From IMG/VR virus record IMGVR_UViG_2842357229_000002, positions 300 to 64,299 of that record: a stretch of DNA of 64,000 nucleotides. The stretch is one strand, 5' to 3'. Origin of the DNA: a virus. Below the pieces are notes generated by a model that searched no databases, had not been told where the DNA came from, and worked only from the letters and a program-made list of their open reading frames with translations. A program made the translations under genes and the position numbers. This document shows, in pieces, positions 6,445-46,547 of this stretch; the stretch's first letter is position 1; every line of letters begins with the position of its first letter.

Positions 6445-6599
6445 GCCACCCTCCTCTGCTCTGCCGGCACGTTGTCGTTTGCATTTGCGTAAAGCTCCGC
6501 CTGACGGATAACATCCAACTCCTGAACCTCATCAGACTGCGCCGCCACCCACGCATCAAATTCAACAATGGCCAGTTCAACTATTTCGTTGCCGGTCAC
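6441..6599 (-). CDS. Hypothetical 52-aa protein (not in ORF track)
   Basis: GTG start overlapping the upstream stop; MTGNEIVELAIVEFDAW...ANANDNVPAEQRRVA. Confidence 0.55.
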   Translation of the reverse strand: MTGNEIVELAIVEFDAWVAAQSDEVQELDVIRQAELYANANDNVPAEQRRVA

Positions 6600-7843
6600 G
6601 CCGCAGCCCTCAATGGAGCGTTGTCGTTTGCTGCATCAAGCATCGCGACACGAACACGCGAAATCTCGCCGTACTCCCTGTGGTAGGTGATCGTCTGCAG
6701 CGAACGGCCAGACAGGAAGCCGGAGCCGAAATGCCAAGCATCCTGCGGTATCGGTGCTTGGTGTGATTCCATAATCACGCCACCACCCTCCGTCGCAAGC
6801 TTAGACTTGTGGTGGACGTGGAATCCGTGGGCGTACCTGAACTTTGACGCTCCCCAGTCCTCGGCTCTGCGGTGCGCCATTATTCCCGGCATGTCCTGCA
6901 GCTTGGCCTCGTGGCCGTGTGTCGCAGAAATCATCACCTTGTCATAGCGACGATGGAAGAAGAGCGATTTGTCGAGATCTACGATGACACGAGGCTCGTT
7001 GCGATACCAAGCGTGCAGGAACCACGCGATTGCCGGCGCCGTCTCCTCGTCGTGGTTGCCCTTGAGATTGCGAACCTCAACGACAGCATTGCGTCTTAGC
7101 GCAGCGTCAATGGTGCGGACTAGAAGCCTGCCCGCAGTCTCCGTGACCTTGGTGTGCCTGCCGTCGACATCGAGGACGTTCTTGGATCTCGATGTCCTGT
7201 TCTCGTTGTTGTCTGCGTGTGTTAGGTCGCCTCCACCAAGAACGATTGCCACCCCGCTTGCCGGTGATCTGGCGACAGCCTCCTCAATACCGCGACCAAT
7301 GACGCGTTCCGCTATTTTCAGATCCCAGTTTTCGTCTGTCTCCTGGCTCCACGCGAACATTCCGACGTGCCAGTCATTGCATGGAATGAGCGTAACGAGC
7401 TCTTCTTGGACGTGTTCCGGCGCGGGCGTCGGGATGGCTGCCGGCTCATAGTTGGAGAATGCCGCCTTCAACGTTTCGGCGATGTCGATCGCCGACGGCT
7501 CTTCCCTCGTCTTCACCCACTTAAGGACTTCCCGCCCCTCTTCGTCGACGAGGGCCGAGACGCCTTTTATCGTATGGCCAGCCGGTACTTCAAATTCGGC
7601 GCCATGCTCGCGTCGCTGTTTGATATAGTCGCCGTTCGGCGTGTTGCTGACCTGCGCAATACGAAAACCCGGCAGCACTGGCTTCGTTCCCAACATCCCC
7701 CGCTCCGATGCAATCTTCAAGCGCGACTGAAAAGTAGTGCGGGACAGATGCAGAAAATCGGCCGCCGCTTGCTGCGAGCCAAGCGCGATGAACGCGTCGG
7801 CGGCTTCCTTGGCTAGTTCGTCTGATAATGGGCGAGTGGGCAA
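6596..7843 (-). CDS. Calcineurin-like metallophosphoesterase with N-terminal HTH
   Basis: NDWHVG, GGGDLTHAD, KGNHD, THGH, HGFHVHH motifs. Confidence 0.8.
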   Translation of the reverse strand: MPTRPLSDELAKEAADAFIALGSQQAAADFLHLSRTTFQSRLKIASERGMLGTKPVLPGFRIAQVSNTPNGDYIKQRREHGAEFEVPAGHTIKGVSALVDEEGREVLKWVKTREEPSAIDIAETLKAAFSNYEPAAIPTPAPEHVQEELVTLIPCNDWHVGMFAWSQETDENWDLKIAERVIGRGIEEAVARSPASGVAIVLGGGDLTHADNNENRTSRSKNVLDVDGRHTKVTETAGRLLVRTIDAALRRNAVVEVRNLKGNHDEETAPAIAWFLHAWYRNEPRVIVDLDKSLFFHRRYDKVMISATHGHEAKLQDMPGIMAHRRAEDWGASKFRYAHGFHVHHKSKLATEGGGVIMESHQAPIPQDAWHFGSGFLSGRSLQTITYHREYGEISRVRVAMLDAANDNAPLRAAA

Positions 7844-7845
7844 GA

Positions 7846-8085
7846 TTAGGATTCCTTCTTTCTTGCGGCGAGCATGGCGTCGGCATAGGCGTAAGAATCA
7901 TGTGCCAATCGCGCTGGCTCGAGATGTGATCCTGGCTCGCCAGCAAGAGCGCCGGCCATTGCCTTTATTGCCGCGTAATCGCGCAGCGACATGCCGCTAT
8001 TCAGGTGAACTGTTGTTCTGCCGTAGAAATCTTTAGTTTCGTGCGCACGCGGAAACGCAGCCCCGCCGTCATCAATCTTCACCAT
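7846..8085 (-). CDS. Conserved hypothetical phage protein
   Basis: DDGGAAFP...GMSLRDYAAIKAMAGALA pattern common in phage early proteins. Confidence 0.65.
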   Translation of the reverse strand: MVKIDDGGAAFPRAHETKDFYGRTTVHLNSGMSLRDYAAIKAMAGALAGEPGSHLEPARLAHDSYAYADAMLAARKKES

Positions 8086-8747
8086 CACGCCCGCCCCATC
8101 AGCATACAAACAGTCGAAGACGGCACGACCATACCAAAGCCGGCAAGCGACGGCGTAGCGCCAATAATGCCGCCGGGGAGGCTGGCAGACGCAACGCCTA
8201 CCGTGATACCAACCACGCGCCCATCAGGCTCGAATACCGGCCCGCCACTGGCGCCCATGACGATCGTAATGTCGGTAATCAACACCTGACGCCACGGTCC
8301 GAGCGCGCGAACGTCGCCAGCGATGCGACCGAAGGAAGAAACGAATTCAAGGTCCATAGGATTGCCTGCGGCCTGAATTTCTTCGCCAGCCTTCGCGGTT
8401 CGGCAATCAAGCGCGCTTCCGACGGCGGGCAGACCGACGGCGCGCAACAACGCGATATCGTATTCTTTGTTTACCCAGAGTACGTCGGCATCCATCTCGC
8501 GACCGTCGTTCGTCTTGAGCTTCACCTTTGCGTTGCCATCAGCAACGTGGCCGGCCGTGATGACGTAGCCATTGCCGATGTTGACGCCGGAACCGTGGCC
8601 GTCTTTCTCGGTGACCTTGACGACGGATGCTTCGGAAATCGTGCGCGGCGCTGACGTCTGCGCCGGGGCGGTGGCATAGGTGATGCCGCTGAATAGAAGT
8701 GCGGTAAGCGCTAGAACAAAGACTGCGGCATATCTGTAGTATCTCAT
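8085..8747 (-). CDS. Exported trypsin-like (S1) serine protease
   Basis: Signal-peptide-like N-terminus; catalytic motifs TAGHV, YDIALL, GASGGP. Confidence 0.85.
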   Translation of the reverse strand: MRYYRYAAVFVLALTALLFSGITYATAPAQTSAPRTISEASVVKVTEKDGHGSGVNIGNGYVITAGHVADGNAKVKLKTNDGREMDADVLWVNKEYDIALLRAVGLPAVGSALDCRTAKAGEEIQAAGNPMDLEFVSSFGRIAGDVRALGPWRQVLITDITIVMGASGGPVFEPDGRVVGITVGVASASLPGGIIGATPSLAGFGMVVPSSTVCMLMGRA

Positions 8748-8805
8748 GGCTGTCTCCTCTCGTGGTGTGGTGGGTGGTCGAGGCTGGTTGGTTGCCAGTT
8801 TTATT

Positions 8806-8834
8806 ACATTGCTGTAAACTTACAAATTTGTCAA
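8806..8834 (-). promoter_or_regulatory. Sigma70-type promoter with embedded ACAAATTTGT operator
   Basis: TTGACA at 8834-8829 overlapping the palindrome at 8822-8831. Confidence 0.7.
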
Positions 8835-8853
8835 GGATGGCAAGAGTAGAAAC

Positions 8854-8888
8854 AAAAAATGCCGCCTCCCCGGTTAAGGAGAGGCGGC
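8854..8888 (-). terminator. Terminator at the end of the late operon
   Basis: GCCGCCTC...GAGGCGGC stem followed by ATTTTTT on the minus strand. Confidence 0.7.
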
Positions 8889-8915
8889 TGGGTGAATTTT
8901 GCTGAGAATGTCACG

Positions 8916-10544
8916 TTAAAGCTCCACATCTAGGATGAGGAAGTCTTTCACGCCGAAGTAGATGGATCCTGAAGTAAAACCTGTCCCGCCCATATTAATA
9001 TAGCCTGCATTGGGTGTGACTGATGTGGGAGTGATCGTGGCTGCGGTTTCAGACCCGCCGCCAATCCTGATCATGCCGCTACTGCCAGAGGAGGGAATCA
9101 CACTTGGATTCGGCGTGCCACGCATCGTTCCAGTGTAATACGCCAAGGTGATCTGCGTAGTACTGAAGGCTTGGCCGACAGCGCCCGCACCGGCTTTTCG
9201 GCAATACCGTTCACACAGCGCCAGGTCCTGCTCGATATGCCGCGGCGCGTACGGCCATGTCTCACTCGATGCATCACCGCGCACCAACCCCCACACCATA
9301 TCGAGCATGACGTTCTGAGCCGCCGTCTGATCCGTCCACATGAAGACGATGAGGTTGTTGCATGAAGAGCTGATCGTCGCCTGAAGCGACCACGGCGTTA
9401 TGGTATTCGCTGTCGGGGTGATGGAGCCAACTGCGGCCACCGTTAGGCCGGACGCAAGGAAGAAGTTGCCTGCAGTGAACGTGCCGCTCGCCCAGTTGTT
9501 TACCACATCCGATGTGACGGTATCTGCGGTTCCGGTCCACTCAAGGATAGCGTAGCGAATGGTCTGGCTTGCTGAGCAACGCACAAACCCGCCTAGCGTC
9601 ACCGGCTTGCCGCGGACACGTTTGGCGGCGTATGCTTCTACGATCTGTGCATTGCCCATGCGCTGCGCGCTGGCCTGTGACTGCGTCAACCGCATCATGT
9701 ATGGCAGCCCATCGGCTACGTCCGTGATGACTGTCGGCGTGATGGATGCCGTTTGCACCAGCGCATAGTGCCGGTCGCACCAGTAAACGTCGTCCCCGCC
9801 GTACGCGACGGCGTTGATCCGCGTGTTGATCGCACCATCACCATTAATGAGCACATCGCGCATGCCGCCGAGCGGGCCGCCATTAAGGCTCGCCAGCGCC
9901 GAAATAGCTTGGCTTCCCATGTTTAGCGGGCCGGTCATCGTCCCGCCGGCCTTGTCCAACTTTCCGGCAACCGTGGTGGTTAAATCGGTGATCTGCTTTT
10001 GCAGTTTACCGAGCGCAGACAATATATTATCAGTCGTGCTTATAACCGCATTCGTCGCCGTACTAAGCCCTGTCAACACGGTGGCGAGGACGCGCGCCGC
10101 TGTGAAATATAGGTTCGTTGAGCCTTCCGTTACCGAATCCGTCGAGCTTGGAGACGGCGAAATTTCTACGTACGAGCTACCGGACCAACGATAGATTTTT
10201 CCCGTATCGTCGGCGACGTAGATTATGCCTGTGCTGCCTGTGCCAGGGAACGCCGCAAGATTGGCGTATTCCAGCACGTCATCCACGTATGATGGCAGTT
10301 GAGCGGCCGGAACCTTGCCGCCGCTATCAAGGCCGGCATAGCCGTTCGCCATGCCCTTATTCGCCGAATGTTCGGCGTCGGTAATGCCATACCCGGTCAG
10401 CGTTGTTGGCTTACCGGTTATGTCAGCCCATGCATTACTGCCGGGCGGTCCCTGAATTCCCTGCGGACCAGTTGGACCCTGCGGGCCAATGACAGCCACC
10501 TCCACGACGTTCGTGGACACTTCCAGAACTGTAACCTGATCCAT
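8916..10544 (-). CDS. Fibre/receptor-binding-like protein with a short collagen repeat
   Basis: GPQGPTGPQGIQGPPG, WADITGKPTTLTGYGITDA and KVPAAQLPSYVDDVLEY fibre-type motifs; beta-rich C-terminus. Confidence 0.65.
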   Translation of the reverse strand: MDQVTVLEVSTNVVEVAVIGPQGPTGPQGIQGPPGSNAWADITGKPTTLTGYGITDAEHSANKGMANGYAGLDSGGKVPAAQLPSYVDDVLEYANLAAFPGTGSTGIIYVADDTGKIYRWSGSSYVEISPSPSSTDSVTEGSTNLYFTAARVLATVLTGLSTATNAVISTTDNILSALGKLQKQITDLTTTVAGKLDKAGGTMTGPLNMGSQAISALASLNGGPLGGMRDVLINGDGAINTRINAVAYGGDDVYWCDRHYALVQTASITPTVITDVADGLPYMMRLTQSQASAQRMGNAQIVEAYAAKRVRGKPVTLGGFVRCSASQTIRYAILEWTGTADTVTSDVVNNWASGTFTAGNFFLASGLTVAAVGSITPTANTITPWSLQATISSSCNNLIVFMWTDQTAAQNVMLDMVWGLVRGDASSETWPYAPRHIEQDLALCERYCRKAGAGAVGQAFSTTQITLAYYTGTMRGTPNPSVIPSSGSSGMIRIGGGSETAATITPTSVTPNAGYINMGGTGFTSGSIYFGVKDFLILDVEL

Positions 10545-10906
10545 TACGCCGCCTCAAATTGATTTTTATAAATCGTCATGGTGCCGCTAAGAATTGTGGT
10601 GACGCATCCGTCCAAGTCGGTGATGCGGATCTGGTAGTCAGCGGTCGAAACCTTCGGCAACTCGTCGGTTTGTGTTGCGGTCGCGTGAAAGGAAATAGTG
10701 CCATCTGCGCCTACAATCGTGCCGGCGAGCACGAGGACGTCCGTCACCTTCACGCGGCCAAGACCGCGTTCGTAGGTGTACTGAATGGCCATTTCTGCCG
10801 TGTAGCCGGTAAGGTCGACGACCACACCGGCCGCCTTATAGGTTAGCGAGAAATCGAAGCAGTCGCCCTTGATGAGATAGGTGTCATATCGAGGCCGTGT
10901 CGGCAT
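10544..10906 (-). CDS. BppU-like Ig-fold adaptor protein
   Basis: KGDCFDFSLTY...VDLTGYTAEM...YQIRITD...TILSGTMTI pattern; coupled to the fibre gene. Confidence 0.55.
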   Translation of the reverse strand: MPTRPRYDTYLIKGDCFDFSLTYKAAGVVVDLTGYTAEMAIQYTYERGLGRVKVTDVLVLAGTIVGADGTISFHATATQTDELPKVSTADYQIRITDLDGCVTTILSGTMTIYKNQFEAA

Positions 10907-10909
10907 ATC

Positions 10910-11212
10910 TTATCCTGCTCTGGTGGTGCGCGTACGCTCAAAGGCGCGATCAAGGCGCTCGTGCAGACCGTCAATTCGGTTGCCTACACCTTCGATGGCG
11001 CGCAGAAGCTGCGCGGTCTGTTCCTGCATGCCGGCTTTGGTGGCGAATGTTTCCGCGGCGTGGAGTTTGTGGGCGGCAAGGTCTGCTTCCGCTTTTTCAG
11101 CTTTATCTCGAGCTGCATCAATCTTGCCCTCAACACGCCACCAAATGGTGAGAATTAGGCCGATTACGGGAACCATCGGCCCGACGGCCGCGATCAAATC
11201 AGCACCACTCAT
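10910..11212 (-). CDS. Single-TM coiled-coil protein of the lysis region
   Basis: One hydrophobic segment followed by a coiled coil; directly after the spanins. Confidence 0.6.
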   Translation of the reverse strand: MSGADLIAAVGPMVPVIGLILTIWWRVEGKIDAARDKAEKAEADLAAHKLHAAETFATKAGMQEQTAQLLRAIEGVGNRIDGLHERLDRAFERTRTTRAG

Positions 11213-11502
11213 TTACCACCAGCCAGTCTCTTGTCGCGATCCGCGTAGAAGTCGCGCAGCGCAGCATGACGCCGGCGGCACTCGATCAGCGCCTTACGAT
11301 CGGGTATCCAGAAGTTTTCGGTCTGCTCCTGCGTAAGCTGCTTGTCGCCGATGTTTACCGGCGCATCGCAATCCTTCGTCAAAGCTGAGTCTGGCTGCGC
11401 CAACTGCGGCGCCGGAGGCGGACTAACGTATCTTGTTGATGCGCTGCACGCTGGAAGCGCCAAGAGCAGGCTTGCCAGCGTCAGGGTCTTGATGAGCTTC
11501 AC
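11209..11502 (-). CDS. o-spanin (Rz1-like lipoprotein)
   Basis: Lipobox-like LLALPACS, Pro-rich, overlapping the i-spanin. Confidence 0.7.
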   Translation of the reverse strand: MKLIKTLTLASLLLALPACSASTRYVSPPPAPQLAQPDSALTKDCDAPVNIGDKQLTQEQTENFWIPDRKALIECRRRHAALRDFYADRDKRLAGGK

Positions 11503-12752: not shown

Positions 12753-12778
12753 GGTTTTTACAACCGTTGGGGATACAA

Positions 12779-30415: not shown

Positions 30416-31033
30416 TCAGCGCGTGCTGCGGACCTTTATGTCAAGGTCCATCTTGAGCCGCGCCTTAATGGCGTCGACTCGTATTACCGGCGCTGCCGCC
30501 GGATCGGTAATTTCTGGTGTGGGAGCGTTGGCGGAGCGCCACTCCTCAAGCGATCGAACGCCAATGGTGGTGTCGTCGTAGGCGGGGAATGCGCAGGGCG
30601 AAATCTCAAACAGGTCAACCTGCTTGATCGTCCTAACGGCTGGCTCGACGCTCTCGTCCCAACTTTGATTTGTGACACAAAATCCGAAACTGACCCCCGA
30701 AATATCGCCTCTGGAAACCAGTTCCCAAAGATCATTTCCATCACTGGTGTTTGGGAGGTCAAGTTCGAATCGCAAACCTTGGGCATCTTCTGAAAGGCGA
30801 AGAGTGCCGCTGCGCGTGCGACCAACAACGCGGCCTGTATCATGATTGATCAGTGCCCGAACATCATTAGAGAGCGACTTGGTGAACGCGCCAGGTTCGA
30901 TGCGCTCAACCCAATACCCACCGATGTCTGCGTCGCTGTTAAACACGGCGGCCAGCCCCGTCAAGGTGCGCTTATCGCCCTCTGCGCGGGTCTCTACGCC
31001 AAGCGTTCCGCCGCGCTTTTCTACGTTGGTCAT
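30416..31033 (-). CDS. HK97 prohead protease
   Basis: GLAAVFNS, ERIEPGAF, ALINHD, SFGF, LFEIS...FPAY. Confidence 0.95.
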   Translation of the reverse strand: MTNVEKRGGTLGVETRAEGDKRTLTGLAAVFNSDADIGGYWVERIEPGAFTKSLSNDVRALINHDTGRVVGRTRSGTLRLSEDAQGLRFELDLPNTSDGNDLWELVSRGDISGVSFGFCVTNQSWDESVEPAVRTIKQVDLFEISPCAFPAYDDTTIGVRSLEEWRSANAPTPEITDPAAAPVIRVDAIKARLKMDLDIKVRSTR

Positions 31034-31869
31034 TTGGCGTTCGCCTCTAAAAAATGTTGATTGTCATTGTCTGGCCGCCACTTGGCGCCCTTGGCTATGT
31101 TGTCGGCGGCCCACAGAGGCTGCAGATTTGAAAGCGCCCACGCTAACTTGAATTCTGGATCGTCTGGCGTTTCGTAATCAAATGACGCCAATGGTCGGAT
31201 GTGATCGATGTGCCAGTCGCCATAGTTATCAAATGACATTCCAGGCAAAAACTTGGACTCGAGATGATGCATTAGATCTGCAATCGAGAATTCCAGCAGA
31301 TCAATTGTCCGCCGATCTCCCTTGCTTCCTGATGTAATCCCGCTCCAAATGCGGCATCGCATAGCGCTCTCAATGCGAAATTTTAGCGACTCTCGGCGAC
31401 GGGAACTATATTCGCTGTGCTTGCCGGGGTTGGCGTCGTACCATCCGCGCATATAATCACGCCGTTTTGGTGCATTATCAGCAGCCCAAGACGCATAATC
31501 AGCCTTCAGCCTGTCAGCATTTTCAGCGTAATATGACCTGTTGTATGATGTTACTTTATCTGGATTTTCTAGCTTCCATGATCGAGCCCTATCAAGTGAA
31601 CGATCATGATTTTCGTAGTGCCAATTCATCGAGCGCTCTCGATGTTTGGCCGGGCCTTCCGCGTACAGCGCACGCTTCTGCGCATTTATGACATCACGCT
31701 TCCGCTCGTACCGCAGCAAGGATGCCGACGATTCGCATGACTTGCACACAGACCTGCGCCCGCTCTTTACCGTCTTTTGGACAGAGAAATCGCTTGTGTT
31801 CTTGAGGTCTTCGCACTTTGTGCACGCCTTGAAAAGGCCGGCGTCGCCCGCATATATAACCTCAGCCAC
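31030..31869 (-). CDS. HNH homing endonuclease
   Basis: CTKC..CKSC N-terminus; WHIDHIRPL...LSNLQPLWAADNIAKG. Confidence 0.85.
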   Translation of the reverse strand: MAEVIYAGDAGLFKACTKCEDLKNTSDFSVQKTVKSGRRSVCKSCESSASLLRYERKRDVINAQKRALYAEGPAKHRERSMNWHYENHDRSLDRARSWKLENPDKVTSYNRSYYAENADRLKADYASWAADNAPKRRDYMRGWYDANPGKHSEYSSRRRESLKFRIESAMRCRIWSGITSGSKGDRRTIDLLEFSIADLMHHLESKFLPGMSFDNYGDWHIDHIRPLASFDYETPDDPEFKLAWALSNLQPLWAADNIAKGAKWRPDNDNQHFLEANAK

Positions 31870-31962: not shown

Positions 31963-33240
31963 TCAAGCTGCAGTTGCGTCTTTGCTTTCGTTGTCATTGG
32001 CCGCGCCGCCATTTTGGACGGGCTTCGTCGCAGACATGTTCTGCATCCCTAGAGGGACCGTGGCGCCTTGGATGTATAACTTGTCTGCCTCACCACCCTC
32101 TGCTGGCCAATTTTCAAGCCCACGTATCTCATCAGGCTTCAAAATAGCGTTCTGAACGGCAGTCGCATAACCAGTCATGCGGGCGACAAAATCGCCGCGG
32201 AGCAATGAATCTTGGTTGAAAGACACGAAGTTCTTCGTATTGCGGGCAGTGAATAGCTTAAGATTTAGTTCCTGCTCCCAAGCAACGAGCCATTGCATTA
32301 GTGTATGTTTGGTGAAGTTTAGATCTTGTTGCTCTACATTGCTGAAAGTTCCATGCGTCAAATCTTGCAGAAACGCTGGCGGAAGATTAAAAATCCGCGC
32401 TACTTCCTCGATCTGGTAACGCCTCGCATCAATCATCTGAGACTTGTCAGGATCGATACCTACCGCCTTTAGCTCATGCCCTGCCGGCATGATCAGGACG
32501 TTTCGGCGCTCCGCATTAGCATCTCGAATGGCCTTGGTTACGTCAGTGGCCGCCCTCGATGCAGCTGCAGGCGACCCGACCGGGCCGTATAGGGCCAGAG
32601 GCGGCACGCCGCCATTCAAGAACAGCTTCTCGGCGTAGGATTCAAGCGCTATCGCAAGGCCGACCGCCTTGGCAAGTCGCTGTATTGGTGCGACATGACA
32701 CAGGCCGTCAGGTTCAAGCATGAACGGCACATCGATGATTTCCGACGCCGCATATTCTATTTTGCGCGCGCCTTCGTCGTAGATGTAAAACTTCCTGCCG
32801 CCGCGCCGCTCAACCGTCACCAGCAAGGGATTCAGCGGCCAAAGGTTCGTCACCCTGCCCGCTTTGTTCCGCTCAATGAAAGTGAACGCGCGCCCCAAGG
32901 TCAGAATATTGACCATGGAGTATTTGCGCCAAGCAAACGACGTCCATTCCGGGTTGGGCGCATCCTGAAGGATGGCGTAAAGCGGGTTTGCTTCCGCCGC
33001 TTCCCTGCCCGCATCGTTCTTCACGAAGAGCTCGAGCGGCAATGACGCCAGCGTGCCGGCGAGGAAGTTGACGGCGCACCATACAGCCGGGACGCCAAGG
33101 GCGGTCTCGACGGTCACAGGCACGCCGCTGGCCGCGTTCCACGTCTCGAACATCGAGCGCCACGCGCCGACGTCGGATAGCGGCACGCTTGGATTTTCCA
33201 AGCTAGCGCGCGCTTCCGTCTTCTTGTCAAAAGGCCACAT
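31963..33240 (-). CDS. Portal protein (HK97 family)
   Basis: VPAVWCAVNFLA, PNPEWT, IARIFNLPP, TFSNVEQ, LKPDEIR.LEN. Confidence 0.95.
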   Translation of the reverse strand: MWPFDKKTEARASLENPSVPLSDVGAWRSMFETWNAASGVPVTVETALGVPAVWCAVNFLAGTLASLPLELFVKNDAGREAAEANPLYAILQDAPNPEWTSFAWRKYSMVNILTLGRAFTFIERNKAGRVTNLWPLNPLLVTVERRGGRKFYIYDEGARKIEYAASEIIDVPFMLEPDGLCHVAPIQRLAKAVGLAIALESYAEKLFLNGGVPPLALYGPVGSPAAASRAATDVTKAIRDANAERRNVLIMPAGHELKAVGIDPDKSQMIDARRYQIEEVARIFNLPPAFLQDLTHGTFSNVEQQDLNFTKHTLMQWLVAWEQELNLKLFTARNTKNFVSFNQDSLLRGDFVARMTGYATAVQNAILKPDEIRGLENWPAEGGEADKLYIQGATVPLGMQNMSATKPVQNGGAANDNESKDATAA

Positions 33241-35764: not shown

Positions 35765-36058
35765 TCACAATGGCCACCCATCCGCTCCGTATACCACCAC
35801 CGTCTTGCCATTGTCCTCAAGCTGGCCGCGAGAGGAGTGGCACGGCTTGCACGTGCTTATGAATGGTCCGCTCCAGAACAGATCAAGGTCGCCCTTGTGA
35901 GCGACCTTGTGGTGAACCTCATTGGCTGCCGTGATCTCTTCCCGCTCTAAGCACCATTCGCATAGGGGATGGATAGATAGTTGTGCGTGCCTAATAGCGC
36001 GCCAGCGTGCCGTTTTATATAGGTGAACCCAAGGCGTATTGGCGCGATACTTTGTCAT
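35765..36058 (-). CDS. Packaging-associated HNH endonuclease (HK97 gp74-like)
   Basis: YKTARWRAIR...PLCEWC...VHH...CKPCHS. Confidence 0.85.
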   Translation of the reverse strand: MTKYRANTPWVHLYKTARWRAIRHAQLSIHPLCEWCLEREEITAANEVHHKVAHKGDLDLFWSGPFISTCKPCHSSRGQLEDNGKTVVVYGADGWPL

Positions 36059-37137
36059 GCCACCATCGCAAAAAGATTTGGTTGAGCAGGAGGCGTATCG
36101 CTCTTATGAGCGTTGCACTTACGACAGGCACATTGCGTATTAAAGTAGCTATGCGCTCCACCTAATGCTAGGGGCATGATGTGGTCCAACTCAGGAGCCT
36201 TGTCGTCAAGCGTGCCGCGCAGTTTTCGTGGCGTCTTCACACCGCATATCTGGCACTTCCACTTATCGCGGTCGAATACCTTAATCGGGTCTACGTTCTC
36301 CACATATGCAGCCCTAAGCATAGCTTCACGCTTCAACTTGCCGGTGCGCCGCCCGTTCCTTTTTGAACACTTGCCGCCACAGAACTTTCTGATTTTCTCC
36401 CCGTATGATGGCGAGAATACCGATCCGCACTCGGCGCATGGCCTTGGAGATCTATCAACGTTGTCGTTGGCTGCGTATCTGGCCCTGGCTTTGTCGCTGG
36501 CAATTGCCGCACGACATTCGTTCGAGCAGAACTTTGCCGTTGCGCCGTTTGCCGTAAAGGGCTTGTCACACACTGCGCAGCGTGGCCTAAATACCGTGAA
36601 CTTTGCAACCTTAACAAGGTCTGCAGAAGCGCGAAGATATTCGTGGCCACAATCTCGAGAGCAGAATAATGCTTTATCCTTTGCATTTGGATTGCGCTTG
36701 AAAGTTGCGCTACACCATTTGCATTCTCGCTCTTGTGCGTTCCTGTGCCTGTCGCGTCCCTGCTCTCCATATCTCCTTGCGCAATTCTTGCTGCAAAAAA
36801 TCTTTCCAGGCACACCAGTGAACTCGCCACCGCAACGAAGGCAGTTGCCGCTGATTAACTGTCGTTCCGGTTTCTGACGTAAGAGTTTTGGTTGTCGTGG
36901 CTTTTTGCGGCTATCGTCACGGCAGGTAGAGTCACAGAACTTGCGCCTTCGACCAGTGATTTCTTTTTCGCAATGAGCGCATTTCCAATCAGTAAACACG
37001 GGCGGATGCTTGCATGCATCGCATCGACTTGGCTTTGGCCCGCGCTTCGACGATGGTGCTATATTGCCACCGCACTCTATGCACTTCCTAAAATTATCAT
37101 TGGCGGCAACTGGCCCGCCGAATAGCGTATCAAACAA
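36055..37137 (-). CDS. HNH endonuclease with tandem zinc-finger repeats
   Basis: Five CxxC...FCxxxC repeats, then CQICG...ELDHIMPLALGG.H...N..CACRKCN..K. Confidence 0.85.
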   Translation of the reverse strand: MFDTLFGGPVAANDNFRKCIECGGNIAPSSKRGPKPSRCDACKHPPVFTDWKCAHCEKEITGRRRKFCDSTCRDDSRKKPRQPKLLRQKPERQLISGNCLRCGGEFTGVPGKIFCSKNCARRYGEQGRDRHRNAQERECKWCSATFKRNPNAKDKALFCSRDCGHEYLRASADLVKVAKFTVFRPRCAVCDKPFTANGATAKFCSNECRAAIASDKARARYAANDNVDRSPRPCAECGSVFSPSYGEKIRKFCGGKCSKRNGRRTGKLKREAMLRAAYVENVDPIKVFDRDKWKCQICGVKTPRKLRGTLDDKAPELDHIMPLALGGAHSYFNTQCACRKCNAHKSDTPPAQPNLFAMVA

Positions 37138-37770: not shown

Positions 37771-38712
37771 TTATGCGTACATCGGTTTTTTTCTATCCCT
37801 TATAGCAACTAGGATTTCAGCCAGATCGACTAGCGCTTCCTTGCCGGCCGCTATCGCAGATCCTTCGTTGTGACCTAGCAAAAGGCCGATCGACTTGAGA
37901 GTGCCGCGAGCCGCAACCTCTTCGATAACGGCGGTAGCGCTGCTCGTAGGCGCATCAGGCTGCTCCCACATGACTGCGCCACTGGACGAGTTGCCGGATG
38001 GGTTGGTTACTCCACCAAGGAAGCCGGCGCCTTCGGCTACGGCTTGCGGGCAGAAGGTGACGCCATTGATCTTGGCCGCTGGCACGCTGCCATCGACGCC
38101 AAGATAGCAAAGTATGGCTCTTGCCGCCTCCACACCGGGAAGAGGATCGTACATCGACGACAAGGCAGGCTCGCCAGACAGCGGTCGATGGTAGTGCTCT
38201 GCGGCCATGGGCGAAGGCGTGGTGGCCTTTGTGGCAAGGTAGAAGAGCGGCGAGCGAGTCTTGTTCTCTTTGCTTTCCGTGCTTCGCGGCCTGTCTGTCG
38301 GCTTGAGCTTCTTGCCCTTCTTGGTCGTTCCCCATTCGATTAGGCGACCACTCAGGAACCGCAGTGCGCCGATTGATACGCGGCGCTCGGTTTCATAACT
38401 TGGCGGTACCGGGTTGCCGTCCGCATCGTGTGATGCCTTCATCAGTTCGCCGATGGTAGGGCGAATCTCTTGCCGTGTCGGTTCGACGTCTACGAACCAG
38501 TTAGCTGGCTGGCGTGGCAGTGCGTCGGCGAACGCTTGCGCCAGATCGGGGCGGTTGTCCCATAGCCACCGCAGTGCGGGAAGCGTGCCGCGGTAATGTG
38601 GCTCTCTCGGCTTGCGTTGCGGATTGTTACGTTGCGGGTTGTTGTCGTTTGCGGCGATTGGCCGCTCTTTGATGGCGATTAGCTGCTCGGCAAGCGACCC
38701 ATGTCTGGCCAT
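37771..38712 (-). CDS. Hypothetical protein in the late-regulator position
   Basis: 313 aa immediately upstream of the late leader; own operator-promoter at 38766-38794. Confidence 0.7.
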   Translation of the reverse strand: MARHGSLAEQLIAIKERPIAANDNNPQRNNPQRKPREPHYRGTLPALRWLWDNRPDLAQAFADALPRQPANWFVDVEPTRQEIRPTIGELMKASHDADGNPVPPSYETERRVSIGALRFLSGRLIEWGTTKKGKKLKPTDRPRSTESKENKTRSPLFYLATKATTPSPMAAEHYHRPLSGEPALSSMYDPLPGVEAARAILCYLGVDGSVPAAKINGVTFCPQAVAEGAGFLGGVTNPSGNSSSGAVMWEQPDAPTSSATAVIEEVAARGTLKSIGLLLGHNEGSAIAAGKEALVDLAEILVAIRDRKKPMYA

Positions 38713-39181: not shown

Positions 39182-40216
39182 TTATGCCAGCATCCATACA
39201 TTGCCGATGGCGGAGAACACCTCTTTGAATTTCTGCGGATTGTCGCCGAAGTAAAAGAACGATTGGCCCATAGCCGGGCTGTTTCCTTGCCGCGTGGGCG
39301 ACTCGAAGCGAATGCGTCCCGTTGTCGTGCACATGCGGGTGCATGCGTCCTGCATTGATCTGTGCCAGCCGGTGTCGGCGCTGTTGTTAGTGAGGACGAT
39401 TGCCTCTGTAACGCGACCTGACCGATACTCGGCTATAACCTTGTCGGCGAACTGCTGCACCTCTGGATTCGAATACGGAGGGTTCATCCAGACCTTGCCA
39501 AGCCATTCCTTGTCGAGACCGTTAGTTTCTTCCGTGTAGTAGGTGCTGGCCCTGACTGTGCGCTGTGCCGTCGGGTTGCTGGCCGGGTCTGTGTCGATGC
39601 TGCCCATAACTTCTCGGGCCATGTCGACGTACCGTGCCGGGGTGTACCACTCGTTGTCGCCAGAGAAGGACGATAGGCGGGTATTGATTTCTCGTGAGAG
39701 CGCGTGGCGTGTTGGCTCCTTGCCGTCCGCTATGATGTCAGCGAGAGCATCCTTTACGGCATACGGATCTTCATTGAGGATATTTCTAAGCTTTCGAGCA
39801 TCATGAACCGCATTTGCACTGAGTCCAGTATCGGTAATCCTTGCCGGCTTAAGTCCGTTATCATCGAAACCGACTTTTGGCCTTCCCGTCCTAACACCGA
39901 CTTCCCCGCGCGCTTGCGCCGCATCCAACTCATCTGCAAAGCGACGCTTCGCCATTGCCTCGATTTCAAGAGCGTCAGCTTGCGCACGATAGACTGCCCC
40001 GATTACGTCGTCATACGCGCCCTTGGCTTTAGCGAAACGCGCGGCTGCCTTGGCTGCATCGTAGGCCAAACCCGCAGACGCCTTCGCCTCCAGCACTTCA
40101 GCAGCAGTCGTGGCCGCCGCCAACTGCGCGGCAGCCTTGCGCACCAATTCAGGCAATCCTGCGATGTCGCCGCTGACCACCACATCGTTCGAAACCCTTA
40201 ACGCAACCGCATTCAT
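39182..40216 (-). CDS. Phage N6-adenine DNA methyltransferase (Dam-like) with N-terminal helical domain
   Basis: NEWYTP, DTDPAS, VWMNPPYS, GRIRF. Confidence 0.85.
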   Translation of the reverse strand: MNAVALRVSNDVVVSGDIAGLPELVRKAAAQLAAATTAAEVLEAKASAGLAYDAAKAAARFAKAKGAYDDVIGAVYRAQADALEIEAMAKRRFADELDAAQARGEVGVRTGRPKVGFDDNGLKPARITDTGLSANAVHDARKLRNILNEDPYAVKDALADIIADGKEPTRHALSREINTRLSSFSGDNEWYTPARYVDMAREVMGSIDTDPASNPTAQRTVRASTYYTEETNGLDKEWLGKVWMNPPYSNPEVQQFADKVIAEYRSGRVTEAIVLTNNSADTGWHRSMQDACTRMCTTTGRIRFESPTRQGNSPAMGQSFFYFGDNPQKFKEVFSAIGNVWMLA

Positions 40217-40635
40217 GCTGCCACCCGCATCAGCCCATCGTTGTCATTCGCCACTTCGAAGAATTTTTCAGCCGACACTTCGGCGCCAGTCTTCTTTTCG
40301 CGAATCCACAGGTTTTCTGGGTTGATATCGAGGTGGTCGCCGTTGAATGGGAATACGTCGTATGCCGCTGGAACGGGACGATGGTATGTTAGGAACAGAC
40401 TGATGCGGTGGGCCATTTTCGATGCGTGAACCCGCGTTGGCTTGGCGAAATTGCTGGTTTCCTTGCTTACCAGTTCGAACTCGCCGTAGAAGTATTTTTC
40501 ACAATCTACGGTGTTGTGATTTGTGTTTTTCTGACCTGTCCAAATCCACTTGCCATCCGGCTGCTTGGAAACGTTCCTCCAGAACGTGCCATCATGTCCC
40601 GATCTCATGTCGATCTGCTTTTGTGTAAGTGGCAT
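40213..40635 (-). CDS. Degenerate HNH-like protein
   Basis: FWRNV..Q.DG.WIWTG...AHRIS...NGDHLDINPENLW; the usual HxC metal ligands are missing. Confidence 0.6.
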   Translation of the reverse strand: MPLTQKQIDMRSGHDGTFWRNVSKQPDGKWIWTGQKNTNHNTVDCEKYFYGEFELVSKETSNFAKPTRVHASKMAHRISLFLTYHRPVPAAYDVFPFNGDHLDINPENLWIREKKTGAEVSAEKFFEVANDNDGLMRVAA

Positions 40636-41306: not shown

Positions 41307-41366
41307 GTCGGTCTCCTGTGGTGGTGTGGTGGTGGGTTTCTCTATTTTCTCTACAAATCACTTCAA

Positions 41367-41747: not shown

Positions 41748-41760
41748 GTATCAGGTTGTA

Positions 41761-43890
41761 CTACGATGGCCAAAACCAGAGGCCAATGTTGTTCACATGG
41801 CCGTCCTCGACGAGCGCTTTTGGCGCGCGCTGGAACTGCTTCCGTGCGGTCTCGGCGGCGCCGGTATTCGCCATGTCACGGCTGGCGTAGAACTCATTGC
41901 GCCACGTCTGCTCGTCGACCACGAGAATATCTTCGGGGAAAGCGCTGCCGCCCGGCTCAATCCCGTTCTTCTCTAGTGCGCTACGCAATGCCTTGAGCAC
42001 GTCACCCTTGAACCCCTTTAGCGTTCCACTTGTCATCTTCACGTCCTCGGCCGGCACCACGACAGGCGCCGTAGTGGGCTCGCCGTCCTCATCCGTGCCA
42101 ATCTGTACCGACTTCATGGTGAAGGCCAGAACGTCGCCTTCCTCGCCGTCGTTGGTGCCGTCGCAGACAAGTCTGTGCTTGTTGCCGTCCTTCTTGACCA
42201 TGAAGGATGCGTCGACCGCGCCATCAAGATCGATCGCGCCCTTGCCTCGCTCGCCGCTCCAGGCGCTATGGTGAATGGCTGTGACGTGCGCTTTCGTCTC
42301 CGCCAGGATCTCGTCGCACGACTGCACAAAGCGCGTCATATCCTTGCTGGCGTTCTGGTCGCCGCCACCGAAGACGCGCGTTAGTGTATCGATGATCACC
42401 CACACGCATTTCATCTCGGTTATGGTCTCGGCCTCACGGATGGCCGCAATCAGGTCGCGCGCGTCCTTTAGATCGCGAGTGAAGTCCAGCCGGCCGCCCA
42501 CCACCAAGAGCGGGACGTTGTGCACGTCATGATGCTTGCGGAAAGCCATCATACGCCGCTCCGTTAGCTTCTTGCGCTCGGCTGCAACGTAGACCACCAA
42601 ACCTTGCTTCACCTTCTTGCCGTGCCAATCCATGCCAGCGGCAATGTGGCATGCAATGTCCGTGACGATGACGCTCTTGCCTGTGCCTGGCAGACCGGAA
42701 ATCGTGGTGAATTCGCCCTCGCCGAGCCAGCCCTTGAGGATCGTCTCTTTAGGCTTTCCTTCCTCGATGGCATCAAACCACGTTAGTTCGAAACGCTCGC
42801 GTTTTTTGGGCTGGTCTGGGTGTGGCGGCTCGCTGACTGTTTCCGTTTCGGTTGCGGCGGCAGCCTTCTTGGCCTTCATATTATCGACCATCCTGGCCAC
42901 GGCCTCCGGATCGACAACAGTCGTATTGTCGTTGTCGTGGTCACGTTCCGGTATTTGCCGCGGCGAATTGGCCGTCTTGTCAAGGCCGCGCTTAATCTTG
43001 TCGAGGCACTTTCGCTCGCCATCGGTGGCGGCAAGCCCATTCGCTCGAGCGGCGTCAATAAGGCCAGCTTCCGCGTCGCTGCGGTGGATGTGGCCGGCGG
43101 CAACCAGTTCACCAATGGAACATGCGCTGGCGAACAACTGCTGGCCGCGCTGGCCTTTTGGTGCACCTGCTAGCTTATCGAGCTCCATTTCCATGGCGCG
43201 CGACGCGTACCGCGCGGATCCGGATTCCTCTGGCTGGTAGGTGTATTCGCGCTGTGTAGGAGTGACGGGTGGCGCTTCTTTTGTTTTGACAAGATCCAAA
43301 AGCCAGCCAGGTGCATCGGCAAATTCCGGCATTCCGTCGCCATCGTGGTCGATCCATTGGTAGCGCCGGCCGTCTGCCATGACGCTGCCAGGCGCCAGGA
43401 CGTAGCCCCCTTCGCCGCGGGTGTCCACGCCCGGCGCGATAGCTGCGCGATTGCGAACGCCGTCGACGTGTTTGAAAAATACGTGCGTCCCGCCATTGGC
43501 AGTCGTAGCGCGGGCTGTTTGCGGCAATGTGCCGTGAATCGCCTCCATTTCAGCAAGCCATGTATGGCCGTCTCTGTCACCGTGCCGGTCCAGATCGAGA
43601 ACCCATGCATTGAGTTTGGATCCCGTCGGTATGCCGATCGCCGCCGCCGAATAGCGTTCGCCGAACCAGATATCAATAATGCGGCTGGAGCGGGTTGCGC
43701 CCTTTAGCCCATCTGGAGTCCATGGCGCTTTTTCGACGAATTCTATGATCTCGCCGGTGGCGTGGTCGACGCCTTCACTGTTGGCTTCTCGGCACGGGAA
43801 AACGGCAACGCCCGCCGCTATGAAACCGCGGGCAACGTCTAGAGGAGAGCGTGTGGTGGGTGTTGGCACCTTGAAGTTGATTTTGGCCAT
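41761..43890 (-). CDS. Bifunctional primase/polymerase (PrimPol) fused to an AAA_25 RepA-like helicase
   Basis: VFPC, VLDLDRH, GGTHVFF, DTRGEGGYVLAPGS; GLPGTGKS, IIDTL, IHH.....RG. Confidence 0.9.
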   Translation of the reverse strand: MAKINFKVPTPTTRSPLDVARGFIAAGVAVFPCREANSEGVDHATGEIIEFVEKAPWTPDGLKGATRSSRIIDIWFGERYSAAAIGIPTGSKLNAWVLDLDRHGDRDGHTWLAEMEAIHGTLPQTARATTANGGTHVFFKHVDGVRNRAAIAPGVDTRGEGGYVLAPGSVMADGRRYQWIDHDGDGMPEFADAPGWLLDLVKTKEAPPVTPTQREYTYQPEESGSARYASRAMEMELDKLAGAPKGQRGQQLFASACSIGELVAAGHIHRSDAEAGLIDAARANGLAATDGERKCLDKIKRGLDKTANSPRQIPERDHDNDNTTVVDPEAVARMVDNMKAKKAAAATETETVSEPPHPDQPKKRERFELTWFDAIEEGKPKETILKGWLGEGEFTTISGLPGTGKSVIVTDIACHIAAGMDWHGKKVKQGLVVYVAAERKKLTERRMMAFRKHHDVHNVPLLVVGGRLDFTRDLKDARDLIAAIREAETITEMKCVWVIIDTLTRVFGGGDQNASKDMTRFVQSCDEILAETKAHVTAIHHSAWSGERGKGAIDLDGAVDASFMVKKDGNKHRLVCDGTNDGEEGDVLAFTMKSVQIGTDEDGEPTTAPVVVPAEDVKMTSGTLKGFKGDVLKALRSALEKNGIEPGGSAFPEDILVVDEQTWRNEFYASRDMANTGAAETARKQFQRAPKALVEDGHVNNIGLWFWPS

Positions 43891-44519
43891 TATGCTGCAT
43901 TCCTGATCGTCGAAATGATGAATTCGATTGCCTCGTCTGGCTCGATGGCAAACCATTCGCCGTTTCTGCGGTAGTCTCCGAAATGCGAATGCGCGGCTCT
44001 TTCGACCGCGCTTGCGTTGTTCGCATATCTCGCCATCTCCAACCGCAACGCATGCGGGCTGCCCGTCGACAACTGCGTCAGGCGCTTCTCTGGTGAGTTG
44101 GCGATTCCTATCTTACAGAGTGGCGGGTCGTTGTCGTTTGCGGAGATGACGTAGACGAAGCGACCTGCATCGTGTTTGTCACCACGCGGTGACGTCGTGG
44201 TGTGCGCCGGTTCTGGCGTTGTCTTGGAGGCGGCAATGGACGCCACCTTGTCCCACGCCCAACGATGCAGCGTCTTGGAAACGAAATCATCTGGAGTATC
44301 GATATCCATCATGCCGAGCTCGCCGAGAAGGTAATGAAGCGCGCTCTGCCCTTGCAAGTTTTTGTGGTAGTCATTGTCCAATGCGCGGATTTCCATACGG
44401 AGAATTTCGCCACCGTCATCGGCGCATAGAAAAAATGTGCTGCCTGTTTGGTCTTCAGCCACCCTAGCTTCCACAATTTCAACGCTAAGCGGGCGCCTAT
44501 TCACTTCAAGCGGCTTCAT
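43890..44519 (-). CDS. GIY-YIG (T5orf172-like) domain protein
   Basis: FVYVI...CKIGIA..PEKRL.QL.TGSP...ERAAH..F...R.NGEWF. Confidence 0.8.
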   Translation of the reverse strand: MKPLEVNRRPLSVEIVEARVAEDQTGSTFFLCADDGGEILRMEIRALDNDYHKNLQGQSALHYLLGELGMMDIDTPDDFVSKTLHRWAWDKVASIAASKTTPEPAHTTTSPRGDKHDAGRFVYVISANDNDPPLCKIGIANSPEKRLTQLSTGSPHALRLEMARYANNASAVERAAHSHFGDYRRNGEWFAIEPDEAIEFIISTIRNAA

Positions 44520-44549
44520 GCTTACACTCCTTGTTGTCGTTATCGTGTC

Positions 44550-44774
44550 TCATTGTGCCAACTCCAATCCCTTACGCACGACGATCGCCGTCTTCGTGTA
44601 GTAGACGTAGAAGTTTGGATCGCGGCCCATTAGGTCGACGAATGCAACTCCCCGCCGCACTCCTGTGTGTTCATCCGGCCCGTACTTGCCACGGAACTGA
44701 CCGGCGATATGCAGGGCATGCTGCCATTCACTGGCCGGCACGTTTACGAGTTTCAGGTCCATCAAATCCCCCAT
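44550..44774 (-). CDS. Hypothetical protein
   Basis: TGATG coupling at 44774. Confidence 0.55.
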   Translation of the reverse strand: MGDLMDLKLVNVPASEWQHALHIAGQFRGKYGPDEHTGVRRGVAFVDLMGRDPNFYVYYTKTAIVVRKGLELAQ

Positions 44775-45154
44775 CAAAACGGCGCCTCGCTTAACGCGGC
44801 ACGAAGCCCCCGCGCGCACCCTTCCCACGCCGCCTTGACCAACATGCGCTGGTCGAGCTCGTCGTAGAGTGAGAGGTCGGCGCCAAGTCCGCGTTGCACT
44901 ATCCACTCGCCCACCGCATCAACTCCAGCATCGAGGGCGGCAAGCTCGTAGTCGTCGAGCCGGCGGATTTTCTTGTAATCGTCGATCGCCACGATGCACC
45001 TCTTGCATAAATACGACGGATCTGATTTCGGGTTGCGCGAGATACCCAAGGCTTGCGCCCTCATCCCACAGACATGGCAGCAGGTTGGGTCTCCGGCGGC
45101 GTCTGCAGTCGGGGCAAAGGGAATGATTGGCTTTCCTGTCGGGATCTTCGTCAC
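44774..45154 (-). CDS. Hypothetical Cys-containing phage protein
   Basis: CHVCG...LCKRC; GTG start overlapping the upstream stop. Confidence 0.65.
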   Translation of the reverse strand: MTKIPTGKPIIPFAPTADAAGDPTCCHVCGMRAQALGISRNPKSDPSYLCKRCIVAIDDYKKIRRLDDYELAALDAGVDAVGEWIVQRGLGADLSLYDELDQRMLVKAAWEGCARGLRAALSEAPF

Positions 45155-45972
45155 GAATCTGCTCCAGCCCTTGACTTTGGGAAGTTCAAGTAACAGCGAT
45201 CTCCCCATGTTTCGTATGCTGCGGCGTCGTACGCAAAGGCGGCTTCCTCTGGCGTTAAGAACACACCAAGATGGCGCTGTTTCCTTTCATGCCTTATTGT
45301 CGCGCGCCATTTTCCGTTTCTTCCGTAAGGGCTAACTCCCTTGAAGGCACCTAGCGACGGCTTCATATGTTGGGCTTCTATGTTGCTTCGCAGGGCTGGA
45401 GGCGCCTCTGGCGCCACATCTGGAAAATTCAGATAGCAACCAACTCCCCACCACGCAAAAGCGGCAGAGTCATAGGCGCGCGCAGCCAACTCTTCCGTTT
45501 CAAAATACCCCAGATGGCGCAACTTCCCATCTATGCTGATATGCGCAATCCACTTTCCATTCCTACCGACGTATGAAACTCCCTTGTACGGTCCTTTCTT
45601 CGGCGGTGACTTACGGCTAGACGCGCTCATTTTAGCCCTACTAGAGTCTGAATACACAAAACCGCTGGACCCCTCCCCGCCCTCGGTTAAATTTACCAGT
45701 AAGCCGCCAAATTCTCGGCGCCCGTATTTAGCGATTTCGCTACGCTCAATCTCAAATGCCTCGATCTCCGTGAGACCCTCATGGAGTTTTACTATCGTCG
45801 GCTCCAATCCATCGCGCTTAATCTTGGCTACGATATTCTTGAAAATAATGCCCCTCTTCATCCTAGCGGCGCGCTTCCCCCTCCCCTTCCCGATATAGAA
45901 CGGAGTGCCACACGGCCGAAGCCAGGCGTAGACATAGAAGTCCCCAGAGATTGTGGGTGATGATTCGCTCAT
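45151..45972 (-). CDS. GIY-YIG homing endonuclease with two AP2 domains
   Basis: FYVYAW...FYIGKG..R; LVNLTEGGEG; two KGVS...W.A.I...HLG.F...AA.AYD repeats. Confidence 0.85.
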   Translation of the reverse strand: MSESSPTISGDFYVYAWLRPCGTPFYIGKGRGKRAARMKRGIIFKNIVAKIKRDGLEPTIVKLHEGLTEIEAFEIERSEIAKYGRREFGGLLVNLTEGGEGSSGFVYSDSSRAKMSASSRKSPPKKGPYKGVSYVGRNGKWIAHISIDGKLRHLGYFETEELAARAYDSAAFAWWGVGCYLNFPDVAPEAPPALRSNIEAQHMKPSLGAFKGVSPYGRNGKWRATIRHERKQRHLGVFLTPEEAAFAYDAAAYETWGDRCYLNFPKSRAGADS

Positions 45973-46547
45973 GCAGCAGCCCTCGCCATGTCATCGGCCG
46001 GTGAGTTGTCATTCGCCGCAACAAACCTATCCGTCTGATTGCCCCAAGCCGACCACCCCGGCCAACCCTGGCGCGCGAACAATTCGAGATACGGCCCGCC
46101 GACTAGCCGCTCAATACGGCCGTACTGCTCGTCAGGCTTTCGGCTATGTTCACGGCGCGGTGCGCGGATAAGCTGGCGCACACCCTTGCCGATACGAGGC
46201 GGCTTGCCGCGCTTGAACAGATGGCAGATCTCGACTTCCTGGCGCGTCCAGTAGCCCATGCCCATGCGGCCCTTGTCCCAGACGAAGGCGATAGATACCG
46301 GCGCGAAGCCCCATGCCGCAGCCACTTCGAAGGCAGGCTGCTGGAGATGCGACACCGTCCACATGAACAGAACGCAGTCGTGCGCCGCAACGTCGGAGAC
46401 GGGCAGCGCCTTGATGTCGGCTAAGCTCATGACGGAATAGGGTTGTGCGCCTCTGGCGGGGGCTACGTCTTGCTTGCCGTAGGTTCTGAACGACCATGGC
46501 GGGTCTGCCAAGACGGCGCCGAAGCGCCCATCCGGTAACGGGTTCAT
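45969..46547 (-). CDS. MT-A70 family adenine methyltransferase
   Basis: VLADPPW, LFMW, GMGYWTR, HSRKP, YLELFAR. Confidence 0.9.
   Translation of the reverse strand: MNPLPDGRFGAVLADPPWSFRTYGKQDVAPARGAQPYSVMSLADIKALPVSDVAAHDCVLFMWTVSHLQQPAFEVAAAWGFAPVSIAFVWDKGRMGMGYWTRQEVEICHLFKRGKPPRIGKGVRQLIRAPRREHSRKPDEQYGRIERLVGGPYLELFARQGWPGWSAWGNQTDRFVAANDNSPADDMARAAA

Follow-up and report, generated by a model that had tools for sequence, protein, structure and literature searches.

Candidate two-part ssrA-tag mimics on proteins of a temperate Rhizobium phage

We analyzed 64,000 nucleotides of the IMG/VR virus record IMGVR_UViG_2842357229_000002 (positions 300 to 64,299; hereafter the window), which cover nearly all of a 65,054-bp provirus record and carry almost every gene on the minus strand. 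Four of the encoded proteins, an SbcD-like exonuclease, the portal protein, an HNH_3-like protein and an MT-A70 DNA methylase, end in short tails that open with (A/V)ANDN and close on Ala-Ala directly before the stop codon. ANDN also begins the tag encoded by the transfer-messenger RNA (tmRNA) of the host type. With moderate confidence, we propose that the four tails are genome-encoded, two-part mimics of the ssrA tag that would be read by host SspB and ClpXP. The stability of these phage proteins would then probably be handed to the host SspB-ClpXP system.

The closest named relatives of the phage at the DNA level are Sinorhizobium phage NV1.1.1 and Rhizobium phage RHph_TM3_3_14B. A near-identical prophage, with a 96%-identical portal, is present in Rhizobium leucaenae USDA 9039; it was the single locus found when genome contigs were searched with the portal, and the USDA 9039 genome served as the host-type reference throughout. 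The source is a temperate Rhizobium phage.

The four C-termini had been picked out by an earlier sequence-only reading of the window, and they are exactly as it described, each with an ANDN head and a terminal Ala-Ala. Each tail consists of ANDN plus 7–11 residues, the last two being Ala-Ala. Counted from the A of ANDN to the stop codon, the tails are 11, 12, 12, and 15 residues long, and the host-type tmRNA tag is 12. The earlier statement that ANDN lies 8–11 residues before the terminal Ala-Ala holds only loosely, since the gap is actually 5–9 residues. At position −3 the four tails have A, T, V, and A, so the Leu found there in the native tag (...LAA) is missing. All tails are encoded in frame by the genes and followed by ordinary stop codons; they are not added co-translationally by tmRNA.

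The list of four was itself incomplete: a 52-residue open reading frame next to the exonuclease gene ends in a fifth, near-complete tail, ANDNVPAEQRRVA. The tail of the exonuclease is ANDNAPLRAAA here; in TM3_3_14B, NV1.1.1, and several IMG/VR loci it is the exonuclease that ends in ANDNVPAEQRRVA. The arrangement of the exonuclease with the 52-residue frame recurs in contig G001:C9, and the pair resembles a scar left by recombination or a duplicated tail.

The R. leucaenae tmRNA encodes the tag ANDNYAEARLAA, beginning with the codons GCA AAC GAC AAC, and the head of the phage tails is identical to its first four encoded residues. An SspB gene (PF04386, 162 bits) lies directly downstream of the tmRNA gene, at a gap of ∼150 bp (the pair spans G001:C7:146682-147637). 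Its product matches the solved structures of SspB-alpha from Caulobacter (2QAS/2QAZ, E 1e-33) as well as an Agrobacterium homologue, and the adjacency of the two genes fits a functional pair. No SspB-like gene was found in the phage.

The protein identities proposed earlier were confirmed, directly or through relatives. The exonuclease matches phrog_704, a DNA repair exonuclease of the calcineurin/SbcD-like phosphoesterase type (E 2e-98), and its domain stops close to residue 400 of 415. The portal is of the HK97 type, with a match to PF04860, and the methylase matches MT-A70 over residues 9–171 of 192. For the 140-residue HNH protein the direct HNH match is weak, and PF13392 (HNH_3) was found on its homologues. 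In all four carriers the tail begins after the recognizable domain ends. Alignment-based AlphaFold models gave a predicted local distance difference test score (pLDDT) below 50 for exonuclease residues 403–415 and for portal residues 400–425, the latter without secondary structure. The tails are predicted to be disordered and outside the folded domains, by these models for the portal and the exonuclease and by the domain ends for the exonuclease and MT-A70.

We then counted ANDN over the whole phage proteome. It occurs 21 times in 16 proteins, always in the coding frame, and is the commonest tetrapeptide; 0.2 copies are expected from composition, and the maximum was 3 in 2000 within-protein shuffles. 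The corresponding DNA pattern, GCNAAYGAYAAY, gave 21 matches, whereas 100 dinucleotide-preserving shuffles averaged 0.32 and never exceeded 2. In a 400-kb sample of the host chromosome (121,312 residues), ANDN was not found. Composition or chance was rejected by the DNA shuffles, the protein shuffles, and this host control. Motifs 10–16 residues from the C-terminus are themselves enriched (6 of 21 versus 0.75 expected, p ∼1e-4). The wider consensus is [A 53% / P 25%]-A-N-D-N-x-[P 34% / A 16%], and 20 of the 21 copies lie in non-structural genes, the portal being the sole structural carrier.

The constraint is on the peptide and not on the DNA, because 27 of 28 AAYGAYAAY sites in the window read N-D-N in the coding frame and every synonymous codon is used. 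A DNA-level repeat or protein-binding site was rejected on the same two counts and on the single match in the non-coding strand set. NDN occurs 27 times in frame, versus ∼1.5 expected; variants of the motif are DNDN, three times in the coding frame (28934, 31068, and 42933, minus strand), plus KNDN and TNDN (56818 and 55762). Two other repeated sequences were seen in the window: a palindromic 10-mer, ACAAATTTGT, occurs seven times and is probably an operator or promoter element, and GGCGGCAAG occurs 15 times on the coding strand.

Ala-Ala ends are also in excess. They close 16–18 of ∼100 phage genes (∼17%); about 15 besides the four had been claimed, and our recount gave 12–14. Four related phages reach 17–28%, whereas the rate is 3.6% among 439 genes of the host chromosome and composition predicts 1.4%, so such ends are 5–8 times commoner in phage than in host genes. 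The sequence-only reading had warned that a terminal Ala-Ala can arise where a stop codon overlaps the start and ribosome-binding site of the next gene. Three of the four tails do overlap the start of the next gene, with an AGG or GAGG ribosome-binding site just 5′, and the frequent R or E at positions −3 and −4 is due to that site. However, Ala-Ala closes only 5% of coupled host genes versus 24–34% of coupled phage genes, and uncoupled phage genes still reach 11%. These coupling rates answer the warning, and start/stop coupling was rejected as the main cause of the Ala-Ala ends. The portal was correctly described as not overlapping its neighbor: its stop codon lies clear of the downstream start. 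Between the portal and the S78 prohead protease lies a phrog_1035 endonuclease VII/HNH-like gene (31030-31869, minus strand), probably a homing-endonuclease insertion, and its presence accounts for the uncoupled portal stop of this phage. In the R. leucaenae prophage the portal and protease genes overlap directly.

Both ends of the tails are conserved across diverged homologues while the middle drifts. Of 121 portal homologues, which come from Rhizobium, Sinorhizobium, Agrobacterium, Bradyrhizobium, and Hansschlegelia, 64 have NDN in the last 25 residues together with an Ala-Ala end. The typical portal tail is PANDN-x6-7-[DQN]AA, 12–13 residues with a variable middle, and the phage 16-3 portal ends in ANDNQEDEAEAA. 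In the HNH_3-like family (26 listed members, P0123-P0148, 46–100% identity) the exact tail ANDN is kept in 22 and the Ala-Ala end in 23; three further members have NNDN, MNDN, or TNDN in the tail. Across 14 exonuclease homologues (31–96% identity), N406, D407, and N408 are as invariant as the catalytic His and Asp, and A405 and A415 are nearly so. MT-A70 homologues end in AANDNYPAAPAQAGAA in the R. leucaenae prophage and in AANDNQDLLGRVA in IMG/VR locus L096. Several methylases (near position 36797 of TM3_3_14B; IMG/VR loci L080, L092, and L096) also carry a QxxLF sequence resembling a beta-clamp-binding motif between the ANDN head and the Ala-Ala, in the forms QLSLF, ADLFG, and QPSLFG, which makes three short motifs per methylase tail.

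We scanned IMG/VR with one fixed-codon version of AANDNxP, and the counts that follow are for the matches listed, which come from at least 120 loci and form a biased sample. There were 304 pattern hits versus 5 for the control, and at least 71 loci had two or more. Over 283 unique instances, the distance from ANDN to the stop codon peaked at 11–13 residues (45 cases), with one case at 10 and three at 14, and the tails of 11–13 residues mostly ended in AA or VA. This peak at the native tag length is the strongest single argument that the whole tag is mimicked. Full tails occurred on at least 19 unrelated families, most often on the exonuclease, the portal, and C5 and N6/N4 DNA methylases, and this spread over unrelated families indicates convergent gain. 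Among the tails in related loci (n = 71), 86% end in A and 86% have A or V at position −2; at position −3 most portals have D, Q, or N, and the other tails have A, V, R, or D.

The trait is narrow in range. Phage 16-3 (60 kb) has 18 hits to the DNA pattern, versus two in phiLM21, one each in phiCbK and L338C, and none in PBC5, the Agrobacterium phage 7-7-1, RcapNL, lambda, D3, or F116. Thus, its carriers are a lineage of temperate rhizobiophages of the 16-3 type and integrated elements related to them; the idea that all alpha-proteobacterial phages share it was rejected, since PBC5, 7-7-1, phiCbK, RcapNL, L338C, and phiLM21 have 0–2 hits. The whole 6.7-Mb R. leucaenae genome has 50 matches versus 13 for the reversed control, and about half of these cluster in prophage-like elements: the related prophage holds 16, a small element with an integrase gene six, and another prophage fragment three, and one more is the tmRNA gene itself. 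The small element (G001:C57:4632-13307) encodes a tyrosine integrase, an AAA_25 replication-type ATPase, and an S78 prohead protease, and has six AANDNxP in 5 kb. It is possibly a phage satellite with the same motif.

The tails and the other ANDN copies are collected in the table. In orthologue alignments the internal copies appear as conserved islands in gap-rich Pro/Ala linkers, and two copies of the window are not conserved. An island in variable sequence that recurs on unrelated carriers (16 here; at least 19 full-tail families among the IMG/VR matches listed) is the signature of a short linear motif. The AANDN of the cro-like protein is kept in 8 of 8 homologues, the orthologue being annotated as cro-like in MN988496, and that of the excisionase-like protein in the 3 of 3 that align there. 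The 313-residue protein has AANDN[KE]P in 13 of 13 homologues, the DUF669 protein keeps its first copy in 13 of 14, and the helicase tandem is kept in 8–10 of 12. The copy inside the T5orf172/MUG113 domain may be a chance or structural one. The helicase C-terminus (48564-48600, minus strand) reads DDEVPF, DDDIPF, or DDFIPF in relatives; by sequence it resembles the acidic tail of bacterial SSB (…DDDIPF) and could be a second mimic of a host motif.

Table. Positions of ANDN-headed tails and other ANDN copies in the window
Feature	Positions	Strand	Gene and remarks
SbcD-like exonuclease tail AANDNAPLRAAA	6599..6634	−	gene 6596-7843
Portal tail AANDNESKDATAA	31966..32004	−	gene 31963-33240
HNH_3-like 140-aa protein tail ANDNDGLMRVAA	40216..40251	−	gene 40213-40635; C-terminus ...VANDNDGLMRVAA
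MT-A70 DNA methylase tail AANDNSPADDMARAAA	45972..46019	−	gene 45969-46547
Fifth, near-complete tail ANDNVPAEQRRVA	6444..6482	−	52-aa open reading frame 6441-6599
Tandem PANDN-x3-PANDN near SF2 helicase C-terminus	48600..48635	−	gene 48564-50360; ends DWERDEIPY, not AA
Tandem AANDN...AANDN, Ala/Pro-rich C-terminal region of DUF669 protein	54986..55021	−	gene 54917-55660
Internal AANDN, residue 50 of 89, cro-like protein	59301..59312	−	gene 59190-59459; protein end ...QVAA
N-terminal AANDN (MKTAANDN...), excisionase/helix-turn-helix-like protein	63471..63482	+	only plus-strand copy, in a plus-strand gene
AANDN, residue 21 of 313-aa protein	38641..38652	−	gene 37771-38712
AANDN, residue 223, HNH protein	36460..36471	−	gene 36055-37137
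AANDN, residue 12, HNH protein	37093..37104	−	gene 36055-37137
ANDN, residue 64, dATP/dGTP diphosphohydrolase-like protein	4247..4258	−	gene 3848-4447; not kept in relatives
ANDN, residue 20, dATP/dGTP diphosphohydrolase-like protein	4379..4390	−	linker indel gains or loses the motif among relatives
ANDN inside T5orf172/MUG113 domain protein	44130..44141	−	gene 43890-44519
PANDN, residue 32 of 87-aa protein	50754..50765	−	gene 50595-50858
ANDN, residue 223	54180..54191	−	gene 54003-54857, end ...GLAA; kept in 4/4 homologues
ANDN, residue 267	58094..58105	−	gene 57836-58903, end ...LRAA; not kept in relatives
ANDN, residue 214	58253..58264	−	gene 57836-58903; relatives [ASTC]ND[NA] in a gap-rich linker

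In E. coli, the tag's first seven residues are bound by SspB and its C-terminus is held by ClpX (PMC9963277). By homology, the phage tails may offer both sites at the native spacing. The head, [A/P]-A-N-D-N-x-[P/A], would copy the part of the tag that SspB binds, and the free Ala-Ala carboxyl end the part that ClpX grips; a length of 11–15 residues would keep the spacing, so that SspB and ClpX could bind together. We infer that proteins bearing such tails on disordered extensions would be bound by SspB, recognized by ClpX, and handed as free protein to ClpXP for degradation. With no Leu as in the native ...LAA, the tails would rely more on the adaptor for delivery than the real tag does. About a dozen other non-structural proteins carry the head by itself, in a linker or at the N-terminus, and there it would serve as a short linear motif for docking to SspB. 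A likely purpose would be fast turnover of enzymes that cut or methylate DNA, of regulators, and of unassembled portal, with their lifetime tied to the proteolytic capacity of the host. That the tail limits the copy number of the portal is a reasonable guess.

The resemblance to a two-part ssrA tag that the sequence-only reading had drawn stands in the identity of the head, the Ala-Ala end, the length, the disorder, the conservation, and the presence of host tmRNA and SspB-alpha; it is limited by the missing Leu and by the 17 copies that lie elsewhere. Several points speak against mimicry of the tag. Position −3 is A, T, or V, or D, Q, or N in most portals, and binding to ClpX may be weak. Seventeen of the 21 copies are internal or N-terminal and cannot be classical C-terminal degrons, and the four tails are not isolated, being part of a proteome-wide ANDN motif and a general excess of Ala-Ala ends. 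It is counter-intuitive that a structural protein as essential as the portal should bear a degron. The need of SspB-alpha for particular residues of the alpha-proteobacterial tag is drawn from homology. Codons in the motif are skewed toward those ending in C (at the ANDN sites of four phages, GAC makes up 81% versus 54% in the background and the last AAC 80% versus 59%, and GCT is nearly absent), a mild excess that protein-level selection alone does not account for. Finally, the restriction to one lineage, with 0–2 hits in the Rhizobiaceae phages PBC5, phiLM21, L338C, and 7-7-1, makes a phage-encoded reader or simple ancestry possible.

The preponderance of copies away from the C-terminus also suits another idea, in which ANDN heads, and perhaps the Ala-Ala ends, flood SspB and ClpXP when the early genes fire and so stabilize other phage proteins or host regulators. 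It could also work as a timer that spares the fully tagged proteins once early proteins have accumulated. The co-expression of the non-structural genes that hold nearly all copies, the tandem copies on the probably abundant DUF669 and helicase proteins, and the two peptide sites of the SspB dimer (PMC9963277) would all fit. We nevertheless find this flooding unlikely: one abundant multi-copy protein would serve it best, whereas ∼16 unrelated proteins keep single copies at orthologous positions, and these proteins include low-abundance regulators such as the cro-like and xis-like ones. Moreover, the sharp spacing of 11–13 residues to the Ala-Ala end among the matches listed suits a productive hand-off to ClpX and not mere binding. 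Equally doubtful in our estimate is that ANDN docks another reader, either a protein encoded by this lineage of phages or some host factor besides SspB, in which case it would resemble the tmRNA tag partially or by coincidence. In E. coli, for example, ClpA also reads N-terminal residues of the tag. Confinement to 16-3-like phages, out of the Rhizobiaceae phages compared above, would agree with a reader of this kind, as would the Pro that is frequent at +2 (34–50%) where the native tag has Ala. But the four head residues, the total length, and the end are all identical to those of the host tag, a private reader would have no need of a free Ala-Ala 12 residues away, and the phage search turned up nothing like SspB.

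The presence of a tail on the portal, close to the prohead protease gene (30416-31033), raises the idea that the tails send the portal, nucleases, and methylases into the prohead or mark them for the S78 protease, and some phages do package DNA-modifying enzymes. We regard this as very improbable, given that the head is also found in cro-like, xis-like, helicase, and DUF669 proteins with no capsid role, that no structural protein besides the portal carries it, and that its identity with the host tag would be left unexplained. Hardly credible at all is the view that the motif has no function and is a by-product of composition, of overlaps between stop codons, start codons, and ribosome-binding sites, or of a DNA-level repeat. 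The coupling of three of the four tails to the next gene and the higher rate of Ala-Ala ends in coupled than in uncoupled phage genes would be expected from it. On the contrary, shuffles reach at most 2–3 copies versus the 21 observed, the sites are locked to the reading frame with synonymous variation, coupled host genes rarely end in Ala-Ala, the host chromosome sample is empty of copies, and the uncoupled portal tail is the best conserved of all.

Mimicry of the tag by the complete tails might also be combined with titration by the lone heads. Fully tagged proteins, namely the portal, nucleases, and DNA methylases, would be destroyed while SspB and ClpXP are free, and bulk early proteins that bear only the head, or stress-induced tmRNA-tagged host proteins, would titrate SspB and stabilize the tagged set. 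We think such a stability code improbable. If true, the phage would be able to time its late functions and to sense translational stress in the host as an input to the decision between lysis and lysogeny; the cro-like and xis-like proteins, both regulators, bear the ANDN head.

AANDENYALAA of E. coli is the studied model of the ssrA tag. The phage tails share with the Rhizobium tag, (A)ANDNYAEARLAA, the (A)ANDN start, the free Ala-Ala, a disordered C-terminal position, and a length that is typically 11–13 residues versus 12. They differ from it in being written into the genes, in their variable middle, in the missing Leu at −3, in the frequent Pro at +2, and in the head that also occurs alone. 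Genome-encoded degrons of the same general kind have been reported: the anti-sigma factors of M. tuberculosis are said to carry ssrA-like C-terminal degrons for ClpXP. Other Ala-Ala-type ClpXP degrons are the E. coli "C-motif 1" class, the Ala-Ala end of Caulobacter CtrA, and the C-terminus of MuA. Like the phage tails, these place a small, non-polar ...AA-COOH on an accessible tail of a natural protein; they copy the ClpX-binding end only, whereas the phage tails add the adaptor head at native spacing, on many proteins of one virus. The engineered DAS and DAS+4 tags reportedly combine an intact SspB head with a weakened ClpX end, making degradation adaptor-dependent. The ...A[DQN]AA and ...RVAA tails of the phages share this layout, but they are natural and diverse, end in Ala-Ala instead of Ala-Ser, and are known here from sequence. 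Mimicry of host proteins through short linear motifs by eukaryotic viruses has reportedly been reviewed, and the phage motif resembles it in being 4–7 residues long, disordered, convergently gained, and conserved as an island, with a host signal as the model.

Use of host proteases on single phage regulators is known for lambda CII, O, and Xis and for the Mu repressor. Our literature search found no description of phages that copy a bacterial degradation tag. If the proposal is true, this would be the first large-scale degron mimicry in bacteria and the phage counterpart of the short-linear-motif mimicry of eukaryotic viruses. It would also mean that adaptor-dependent degrons of the engineered DAS type already exist in nature and that SspB-alpha has natural substrates other than tmRNA-tagged proteins. 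Sinorhizobium meliloti phage 16-3, with its 18 motif copies and equivalent portal tail, offers a tractable system. Tag mimicry, if true, would also suggest how temperate phages curb their nucleases, orphan DNA methylases, and unassembled portal.

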